Shown here one piece after another: positions 2,411 to 3,308 of a stretch of 4,826 bases of DNA. This DNA comes from a virus (taxonomy: Duplodnaviria; Heunggongvirae; Uroviricota; Caudoviricetes): IMG/VR virus record IMGVR_UViG_2713896787_000012. The stretch is one strand, 5' to 3'. A program made the position numbers and the translations under genes. Position 1 is the stretch's first letter. Each line of letters begins with the position of its first letter. The notes below the pieces were generated by a model. That model did no database searches, was not told where the DNA came from, and saw only the letters and a list, made by a program, of their open reading frames with translations.

Positions 2411-2438
2411 TTGCGGGAAAAGGATAGTTAAGTAGAAT
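2411..2438 (+). promoter_or_regulatory. Putative sigma70 promoter of the hok mRNA (-35 TTGCGG 2411-2416, 16-nt spacer, -10 TAGAAT 2433-2438)
   Basis: Hexamers and spacing read directly. The predicted +1 (about 2445) coincides with a GGGTGCTTGAGGC motif resembling the 5' end of plasmid R1 hok mRNA (GGCGCTTGAGGC, from memory). Confidence 0.5.
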
Positions 2439-2492
2439 TGCAGCGGGTGCTTGAGGCTATCTGCCTCGGGCATGAACACCAACGGCAGATAG

Positions 2493-2566
2493 AGAAAAGC
2501 CCCAGTTAACATTACGCGTCCTGCAAGACGCTTAACATTAATCTGAGGCTCAATCCATGCTGAACA
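2493..2566 (-). ncRNA. sok: Sok-like antisense RNA (type I antitoxin), about 70 nt, complementary to the hok leader and mok translation-initiation region
   Basis: Minus-strand promoter lies just to the right; the transcript would start near 2565 and run leftward across the mok ATG (2557). It ends in an imperfect hairpin (gcgtc/gacgc core at 2515-2530 flanked by 9-bp ttaacatta repeats) followed on the minus strand by ttttctc (2498-2492). Ends are approximate. Confidence 0.5.
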
Positions 2567-2799
2567 CATGTAGGTTAGCCTCTTACGTGCCGAAAGGCAA
2601 GGAGAAGCAGGCTATGAAGCAGCAAANNNNNNNNNNNNNNNNNNNNNNNNNNNNNNNNNNNNNNNNNNNNNNNNNNATCGTCATCTGTTTAACCGTCATA
2701 GTGACGGCACTGGTAACGAGGAAAGACCTCTGCGAGGTGCGAATCCGAACCGGTCAGACGGAGGTCGCTGTCTTCGTAGACTACGAATCTGAGAAGTAA
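2557..2799 (+). CDS. mok: Mok-like leader reading frame, in frame with and containing hok (arrangement as in chromosomal mokC/hokC)
   Basis: ATG 2557; N-terminus MLNTCRLASYVPKGKEKQA resembles the MokC N-terminus (MLNTCRVPLTDRKVKEKRA, from memory) and reads straight into the hok start MKQQ. Confidence 0.55.
   Translation: MLNTCRLASYVPKGKEKQAMKQQXXXXXXXXXXXXXXXXXIVICLTVIVTALVTRKDLCEVRIRTGQTEVAVFVDYESEK
2572..2600 (-). promoter_or_regulatory. Putative sok promoter on the minus strand (-35 TTGCCT, 17-nt spacer, -10 TAACCT)
   Basis: Reverse complement of 2595-2600 (aggcaa) gives TTGCCT and of 2572-2577 (aggtta) gives TAACCT, with a 17-nt spacer. Position matches the R1 sok promoter embedded antisense in the mok 5' region. 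Confidence 0.5.
2614..2799 (+). CDS. hok: Hok/Gef-family type I toxin (small membrane toxin); N-terminal/transmembrane part masked by 50 N
   Basis: After the gap: IVICLTVIVTALVTRKDLCEVRIRTGQTEVAVFVDYESEK, nearly identical in pattern to the HokC/Gef core (ALVTRKDLCEVHIRTGQTEVAVFTAYESE, from memory). ATG 2614 (MKQQ) is preceded by AAGGAGAAG. Stop TAA 2797-2799. Apparent length of 61 aa depends on the true gap size. Confidence 0.85.
   Translation: MKQQXXXXXXXXXXXXXXXXXIVICLTVIVTALVTRKDLCEVRIRTGQTEVAVFVDYESEK
2627..2676. other. Run of 50 N inside hok/mok
   Basis: Directly visible in the sequence; covers the hok N-terminal/transmembrane coding part. Confidence 0.99.
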
Positions 2800-2806
2800 G
2801 AGACCA

Positions 2807-2861
2807 GGCGGGGGAGTAATCTCCCGCCACCTCTGATGTGTCAGGCATCCTCAACGCACCC
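2807..2861 (+). promoter_or_regulatory. hok mRNA 3' region: stem-loop (2807-2828) plus fold-back element (2849-2861) complementary to the mRNA 5' end
   Basis: ggcgggggag / taat / ctcccgcc hairpin with no U-tract, then cctcaacgcaccc complementary to 2445-2456. Consistent with the fbi/tac pairing that keeps full-length hok mRNA translationally inert. Confidence 0.5.
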
Positions 2862-2918
2862 GCGCTTTACCATACTGAAAATGCTGTTTGAATGTTCATC
2901 TCTGAAAGAGGACTATGA

Positions 2919-3263: not shown

Positions 3264-3281
3264 CCGCCCCTGCTTGTTAAG

Positions 3282-3308
3282 CCCGTCTTACTGACGGGTT
3301 TTCTGTTT
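3282..3308 (+). terminator. Rho-independent terminator after the YgiW-like gene
   Basis: Stem cccgtc (3282-3287) / gacggg (3293-3298) with loop ttact, followed by ttttctgttt. Confidence 0.7.

Follow-up and report, generated by a model that had tools for sequence, protein, structure and literature searches.

A sokW-type antisense RNA opposite the mok start region in a prophage of Shiga-toxin-producing Escherichia coli

Results

The 4,826-nucleotide (nt) virus record IMGVR_UViG_2713896787_000012 (hereafter the window, numbered over its whole length) carries on its plus strand a hok toxin gene with a long mRNA leader and an overlapping mok reading frame, and an earlier reading of its letters (the original prediction) had proposed that a Sok-like RNA is transcribed against the 5′ end of mok. 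We conclude with high confidence that the minus strand from 2495 to 2565 is sokW, the cis-encoded antisense RNA antitoxin of a type I toxin-antitoxin cassette of the hokW/mokW/sokW kind, carried by a lambdoid prophage of Shiga-toxin-producing E. coli within its early (nin-like) region. The element is already known: it has been described and experimentally validated as sokW, the antitoxin of the hokW toxin gene in Shiga-toxin-type E. coli prophages, and we claim no novelty for it. The original prediction had not identified it as this named, published gene.

Identity of the minus-strand RNA

GenBank record AP000422.1 (phage VT2-Sakai, which is Sakai prophage 5, Sp5) annotates sokW, mokW and hokW beneath its BLAST match to the window. 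Its sokW is a minus-strand misc_RNA of 71 nt that by alignment (locus L001 = window + 171) equals window 2495-2565, with the 5′ end at the G at 2565 and the 3′ end after the fourth U of GGGGCUUUU at 2495, so that the RNA predicted to start near 2565 from an antisense promoter coincides with an annotated one. The two copies are identical at 70 of 71 positions, the sole change being T2523 in the window versus G in Sp5, which falls in the hairpin loop and is a variant common to several other relatives; the −35 box, spacer, −10 box, start site, 5′ tail, hairpin stems and U tract are all identical. The mok frame, the readable part of hok, the tac and fbi elements and the 3′ stem-loop are identical to Sp5 or differ by single bases, and over 2400-2900, outside a masked run, the aligned hok/sok segment shares ~99% identity with hokW-sokW of Sp5. 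The window thus holds the same element as Sp5 and as phage 933W (L0137/L0138/L0144; PMC8621323).

A BLAST search against phage records gave 78 near-full-length matches, the top ones at 99% identity and from Stx2-converting phages, and leaders 100% identical to that of the window are present in O157:H7 chromosomes. The entire 4.8-kb window is 99.2-99.3% identical to prophage regions in chromosomes of non-O157 Shiga-toxin-producing E. coli, such as strain 2014C-3011 and O111:H− 11128. The prophage background differs from that of Sp5 and is of the O111 type, with DUF4014 and DUF551 genes upstream and YgiW-like, DUF968 and RusA genes downstream; strain 2014C-3011 has the same flanks, with an antiterminator gene also downstream.

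The sok promoter and the published experiments

For comparison, related loci were fetched from phages and plasmids and supplemented by one pattern scan of species-representative genomes, giving 79 distinct leaders with a Hok-like open reading frame (ORF) from Escherichia, Kluyvera, Klebsiella, Citrobacter, Pantoea, Serratia, Photorhabdus, Yersinia, Erwinia and others. Most other matches of the scan outside Enterobacterales were chance matches that lacked a Hok ORF. One contig of a metagenome-assembled genome labelled Collinsella sp. carries a leader nearly identical to that of an E. coli prophage hokW, and its assignment most likely reflects a binning contaminant.

The sequence TTGCCT-N17-TAACCT has a single occurrence in the window, at minus-strand positions 2572-2600, where the original prediction had placed it. 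The −10 box TAACCT (2577..2572) is identified by pattern match, by family conservation and by the mutagenic primer YO-421 of PMC8621323, and the −35 box TTGCCT (2600..2595), 17 nt away, by pattern match and family conservation; the latter overlaps the hok Shine-Dalgarno (SD) sequence AAGGAG (2599-2604) of the other strand. In the family the second base (A) and sixth base (T) of the −10 box are invariant (79/79), the commonest −10 hexamers are TAATCT (20/79) and then TAACCT (16/79), the commonest −35 hexamer is TTGCCT (39/79), and the spacer measures 17 nt in 67 of the 79 leaders. Since the minimal core TTG-N20-TAnnnT is found four times in the window versus 2.25 expected by chance, the motif alone does not establish a promoter, and the significance of the sok call rests on homology and on published experiments, not on the motif match.

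Those experiments were carried out on the Sp5 locus (Takada et al. 2021, PMC8621323). HokW proved toxic, sokW expressed from its own promoter prevented the toxicity, mutation of the sokW promoter restored it, and sokW in trans gave partial growth rescue. The RNA itself was detected by northern blot with probe YO-592, which is exactly the window plus strand 2536-2565 and therefore detects a minus-strand RNA. Mutagenic primer YO-421, which had more than three mismatches in our oligonucleotide mapping and was read directly against window 2571-2596, introduces four changes, at 2571, 2572, 2575 and 2577, that turn the minus strand from TAACCTA into GAGCCGG; these destroy the −10 box named in the original prediction, and they abolished protection (PMC8621323). 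The complementing sokW fragment (primers YO-541 and YO-406, PMC8621323) corresponds to window 2463-2617. Both checks that had been proposed for the window, a strand-specific northern blot and an assay of the promoter, had therefore already been published on the Sp5 locus, the first with detection of the minus-strand RNA and the second, by −10 box mutagenesis, with loss of antitoxin activity. Minus-strand transcription from this sigma-70 promoter, and antitoxin activity, have thus been shown for a locus that is 99% identical to that of the window.

Structure of the RNA

When the minus-strand RNA 2566..2490 is folded, it forms a single imperfect hairpin (2551..2497) whose 24 pairs are interrupted by one bulged A and one A·G mismatch and whose loop is at 2525..2522. 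At −31.6 kcal/mol (z = −4.8), this fold was equalled by none of 200 shuffled sequences. The layout is an outer stem GAGCCUCAG/CUGGGGCUU, then the repeat arms, then an apical GCGUCU/GGACGC stem closed by the loop UGCA, and the U run UUUUCUCU follows on the 3′ side. The stem-loop at 2497..2551, assigned from the fold and from comparative pairing, with its outer stem, G·U-containing repeat arms and GCGUC/GACGC apical stem, forms with the following U run an intrinsic terminator, in agreement with the earlier claim that the RNA ends at an imperfect hairpin and a U-rich tract. The direct repeats of 9 bp that had been noticed around a gcgtc/gacgc core are also present as described: the two copies, TTAACATTA at 2506-2514 and 2532-2540, are 100% identical and flank GCGTC/GACGC. 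The earlier description of the hairpin was therefore accurate, but it understated the size, given that the outer stem encloses the repeat arms. Direct repeats can pair as a stem here because UUAAUGUUAA is nearly self-complementary when G·U pairs are allowed, a condition that holds only in the minus-strand transcript.

The 14 nt at 2552..2565, unpaired in the centroid fold, make up a single-stranded 5′ tail whose complement includes the mok start codon and the loop of the stem-loop that Sok targets in hok mRNA. The six bases at its 5′ end, GUUCAG, form the complement of CUGAAC (2560-2565), which lies within the 7-nt loop of a plus-strand hairpin at 2545-2582. The complement of Sok as a whole takes in the mok SD (GAGG, 2545-2548) and the mok ATG (2557-2559), so the RNA does cross the mok start codon as had been claimed. 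The gene is thus an antisense gene with its own promoter that lies opposite, and overlaps, the translation initiation region of mok (transcription itself having been demonstrated in the Sp5 copy only, PMC8621323), and its product consists of a single-stranded 5′ tail and one stable stem-loop ending in a U run.

Given that the same bases are also part of the hok mRNA leader, the hairpin and repeats might be merely structural parts of that leader, in which case there would be no functional antisense RNA and the promoter-like boxes would be by-products of the conservation of the hok SD. Consistent with this, the Rfam model for the family fits the plus strand, with a hairpin at these very bases, the promoter hexamers overlap functional plus-strand sequence, and their motif does not exceed chance. 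However, the plus strand of this stretch folds at only −19.2 kcal/mol, since the G·U pairs 2537/2510 and 2536/2511 of the minus strand turn into C·A/A·C mismatches there. The asymmetry extends to the whole family: all 69 of its distinct hairpins fold more stably as the minus strand (mean −20.4 kcal/mol) than as the plus strand (mean −11.1 kcal/mol). Moreover, northern probing with an oligonucleotide identical to the window revealed a minus-strand RNA, and the −10 mutations removed protection (PMC8621323). We therefore regard a purely structural role in the leader as very improbable and retain the assignment of sokW.

Conservation and variation in the family

A close subfamily of 20 distinct sequences has the same extended hairpin, and all of its predicted Soks fold alike, at −28 to −36 kcal/mol; in every one of them the fold of the window is kept and the minus strand outperforms its plus-strand counterpart. 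Standard pairs occupy 91.8% of the pair cells in these relatives, compared with 33-47% when the partners are slid by 1-3 columns. Double changes from G-C to A-U are found in the apical stem of four sequences, but covariation within the close subfamily (A2) is modest when taken alone, with double changes at three pairs and a score reached by 64 of 500 shuffles. The stronger covariation signal comes from the family at large, in which the pair at the foot of the inner stem alternates cleanly between G-C (36) and A-U (24), together with the strand asymmetry noted above.

While the hairpin is near-invariant among close relatives, the 5′ tail and mok start region (A2 columns 1-15, window 2552-2565) are the most variable part. 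Among 5426 complete E. coli genomes, 4310 (~80%) carry related leaders, with a median of two and up to nine copies, most of them labelled hokD, and a variable tail could limit cross-talk among several copies in one genome. Tandem arrays of two to four hok/sok leaders, ~0.4-1 kb apart and on one strand, were seen in five loci (L015 from Photorhabdus luminescens, L016 from Rouxiella sp., L048, L020 and L084), and the copies within them differ chiefly in the mok-start/Sok-tail region.

In two further relatives, from the P1-like phage vB_EcoM-673R5 (L006, 413-587) and from an E. albertii plasmid (L008, 407-580), the hok leader, Sok hairpin and −10 box are kept, the sequence is replaced from the sok −35/hok SD region onward, and there is no annotated Hok coding sequence (CDS). 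These may be orphan sok genes, antitoxins that lack a toxin, on plasmid-prophages.

The overlapping minus-strand ORF

A minus-strand ORF of 76 aa (2339-2569) covers the same region, and it could be proposed that the promoter serves a real protein-coding gene rather than an RNA. The ORF is intact and ATG-initiated in the window and in the near-identical locus L002, and the frame is open in Sp5 too, as a 92-aa ATG ORF. Its product, however, has no Pfam match, it is annotated neither in RefSeq nor in AP000422.1, and the hairpin and U run that terminate Sok lie within it. The frame is interrupted by stops in 19 of 20 distinct relatives, which leave open stretches of 6-49 codons, and is open only in the near-identical Sp5; conservation of the frame biased to synonymous sites was not seen in the divergent relatives. 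We thus reject the ORF as a chance one, a coding role being extremely unlikely, and agree with the original prediction that the region is better explained as the RNA.

The hok/mok cassette

The leader of hok mRNA, reaching from tac to the start codon of hok, occupies 2445..2619 on the plus strand, where it matches the full length of Rfam model RF01794 at 113.5 bits (gathering score 59, E = 3.6e-26). Within it lies the Sok target region (2545..2582), comprising the mok SD, the mok ATG and a stem-loop with the loop CUGAACA at 2560-2566, as indicated by the sequence, by a local fold of −13.4 kcal/mol and by the Rfam structure line. The mok frame (2557..2799, from the ORF list) has its GAGG 8 nt upstream, begins 57 nt before the hok ATG and overlaps hok in the same frame; in AP000422.1 the annotated mokW and hokW have a common stop codon. 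Since there is no stop between the two starts, initiation at the mok AUG would extend Hok at its N terminus. An in-frame mok is no novelty, and we rejected it as such: by a rough count mok is in frame with hok in 35 of the 66 family members that have a detectable mok start, about half. The Rac copy (L003) has one extra nucleotide inserted in the spacer of the sok promoter, which shifts mok to another frame.

The hok toxin gene itself (2614..2799, plus strand) is identified by Pfam family PF01848 (HOK_GEF), by alignment to Sp5 and by a RefSeq Hok/Gef protein in a 99.3% identical chromosome. The 40 unmasked C-terminal residues match PF01848 at 74 bits (cut-off 22, E = 7e-21), while seven N-terminal codons, intact in near-identical genomes, are hidden by a run of N. 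The window has two runs of exactly 50 N, at 1226-1275 and 2627-2676, and the second, which breaks the mok frame, stands for 20 nt in Sp5 (AGGCGATGTTAATCGCCCTG). The masks are therefore not length-preserving, so that the apparent lengths of 61 aa for Hok and 80 aa for Mok are artefacts, and the proteins would in fact measure 51 and 70 aa.

Given this gap, it is conceivable that the cassette has decayed in the present prophage, with Sok perhaps still made and hok non-functional as in several chromosomal hok loci of E. coli K-12. The N-terminal membrane segment of Hok is unreadable across 2627-2676, and orphan or truncated loci do exist in the family (L006 and L008; the partial match H125). Against decay, all readable bases of hok, mok, tac, fbi and the promoters are identical or near-identical to those of the functional Sp5 locus, and an intact 51-aa Hok/Gef CDS is present in the 99.3% identical chromosome. 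Decay of the cassette is thus unlikely by a wide measure.

At the 5′ end of the mRNA, the tac element (2443..2463, plus strand) is defined by two inverted repeats (I5, 8/8; I2, 13 nt, 77%) and by the minimum free energy (MFE) fold. Its first bases, GCGGGTGC at 2443-2450, pair 8/8 with GCACCCGC at 2856-2863, with a 13-nt extension, the 3′ partner lying in a segment (2842..2863) that is supported by inverted repeats and by the fold of a 393-nt transcript. The MFE fold of that transcript, taken from Sp5, predicts closure of the 5′ and 3′ ends at −158.8 kcal/mol (z −5.8), and this predicted long-range pairing would correspond to the tac/fbi lock described in PMC9841398. A G+C-rich stem-loop (2807..2828, inverted repeat I6, present in the full-length fold) stands just 3′ of the hok stop codon, at the same relative position, ~35-40 nt before the 3′ end, as the exonuclease road-block of R1 (PMC1635323); by analogy it may be the road-block that sets the 3′ end of the processed, translatable mRNA. 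Reading upstream from the leader suggests a putative hok promoter at 2411..2438 (TTGCGG, 16 nt, TAGAAT), which would plausibly start transcription near 2445, position 1 of the Rfam model. Sp5 and Rac both keep the −10 region TAAGTAGAATTGC, and farther upstream Rac diverges.

Other features of the window

A 27-aa hydrophobic plus-strand ORF (2320-2403), which starts in an ATGA overlap with the DUF551 stop codon, was considered as a small membrane protein and is probably not a gene; its Pfam match is sub-threshold (E = 0.087), and the Sp5 product diverges after eight residues, the frame not being kept. G+C-rich hairpins followed by T runs are present at 1519-1539, after an ORF ending at 1418 (GGCCGCCCGAAAGGGCGGT), and at 3276-3303, after the YgiW-like gene (AAGCCCGTCTTACTGACGGGTTTT); both look like ordinary intrinsic terminators.

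Discussion

Several observations weigh against the assignment of sokW in the window. A generic promoter and terminator scan of 2300-2950 flagged neither a promoter nor a terminator, and TAACCT agrees with the consensus at only three of six positions; given this poor −10 match and the imperfect hairpin, however, the scan is uninformative rather than negative evidence. Part of the family-wide conservation was forced by the search pattern (AAAGCCCC, GAGGC and GCCKCTTAC), which fixes the outer GCCUC/GGGGC stem and the U run, so these are not independent conservation, and only the inner stem and the promoter hexamers count as independent observations. Expression is known from the Sp5 copy, and the prophage of the window has an O111-type context with upstream genes unlike those of Sp5. 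The integrity of the toxin is unreadable in this exact sequence across 2627-2676, although hok is intact in a 99.3% identical genome. Finally, loop-tail nucleation, 3′ trimming and mok-hok coupling, as we apply them to hokW, are carried over by analogy from R1.

The cassette resembles hok/sok of R1 in its architecture. Both systems have a short antisense RNA, encoded in cis and made up of a single-stranded 5′ tail and one stem-loop, the same gene layout, a sok promoter between the mok and hok start codons, complementarity to the mok initiation region and the same tail-to-loop geometry (PMC1635323), as well as end-pairing of the hok mRNA through tac and fbi, which is predicted here (PMC1635323, PMC9841398). 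R1-like plasmid loci (L009, L010) align to the same Rfam model. In the second of these, from a Salmonella IncFIB plasmid, a group II intron domain (RF02012, 111.6 bits) was seen at 677-824, ~20 nt downstream of a hok gene. The differences are in size and sequence. Sok of R1 has 64 nt with an 11-nt tail (PMC1635323), whereas that of the window has 71 nt with a 14-nt tail, and its hairpin has an extra apical GCGUC...GACGC stem of ~16-20 nt, an insertion relative to the Rfam consensus. HokW and R1 Hok share 44% identity (PMC8621323), and the window differs from R1 in having mok in frame with hok.

From the R1 paradigm (PMC9841398, PMC1635323) and the anatomy of the locus, the following course of events can be proposed. 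In full-length hok mRNA, tac at the 5′ end would pair with fbi at the 3′ end and so keep the molecule closed. The 3′ end would then be trimmed slowly as far as the 2807-2828 stem-loop, which would let the leader refold and expose the stem-loop with the CUGAACA loop, on which the 14-nt single-stranded tail of Sok would nucleate. The duplex would then extend across the mok start codon and SD, blocking translation of mok and with it that of hok, and RNase III would cut the Sok/hok duplex. Because Sok would be short-lived and hok mRNA long-lived, a loss of sok transcription would release the toxin. In published work on hokW-sokW, SokW protection was partly dependent on RNase III and Hfq, and on mitomycin C treatment sokW RNA was lost while hokW mRNA persisted (PMC8621323).

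The hokD (relF) type of E. coli chromosomal and prophage loci is related in sequence: the window leader is 91-97% identical to loci named hokD in RefSeq, among which the Sok 5′ tail and mok start region vary between copies. In some hokD loci (H125) the match is confined to the 3′ third of the leader, and these presumably correspond to the truncated K-12 hokD described by Pedersen and Gerdes (1999). It is possible, though we offer it only as a tentative suggestion that may well not hold, that the Soks of the hokW/hokD type form a distinct structural subclass, with an extended apical stem and with arms that pair only via G·U wobbles, so that the stable structure arises solely in the antisense transcript. 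Divergent 5′ tails might then make up to nine co-resident copies orthogonal, with no cross-protection, and the extension might account for the reported need for Hfq and for how quickly SokW is lost on SOS induction.

The main value of the finding is for annotation. RF01794, although named "sok antitoxin", matches the hok-sense plus strand over 175 nt, from the mRNA 5′ end to the hok AUG, and does so on the plus strand in 10 of 10 scoring homologous loci. We therefore did not take the Rfam match at face value: the model spans tac to the hok AUG and thus describes the hok leader, while Sok proper, 71 nt long, is the reverse complement of the middle part of the match. An annotation copied from RF01794 would place sok on the wrong strand. 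RefSeq, for its part, lists only a Hok CDS in such genomes (including that of 2014C-3011), with neither sok nor mok. Given these omissions and the strand and span of the Rfam match, a pipeline could mis-place the antitoxin or call the spurious 76-aa ORF.

The reported role of hokW-sokW is faster lysis and phage release on prophage induction (PMC8621323), and not plasmid post-segregational killing as in R1. In the Sp5 copy, RecA-dependent induction is accompanied by loss of Sok and appearance of HokW, which after mitomycin C reaches the inner membrane ~1 h ahead of the endolysin; deletion of the locus delays growth arrest and halves phage release, and in Stx2 lysogens the cassette is reported to advance lysis and double the release of phage (PMC8621323). 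The presence of the same cassette in other prophages of Shiga-toxin-producing E. coli, such as that of the window, is relevant to the release of phage and toxin from these strains, and in this sense it extends known work and is not a discovery.

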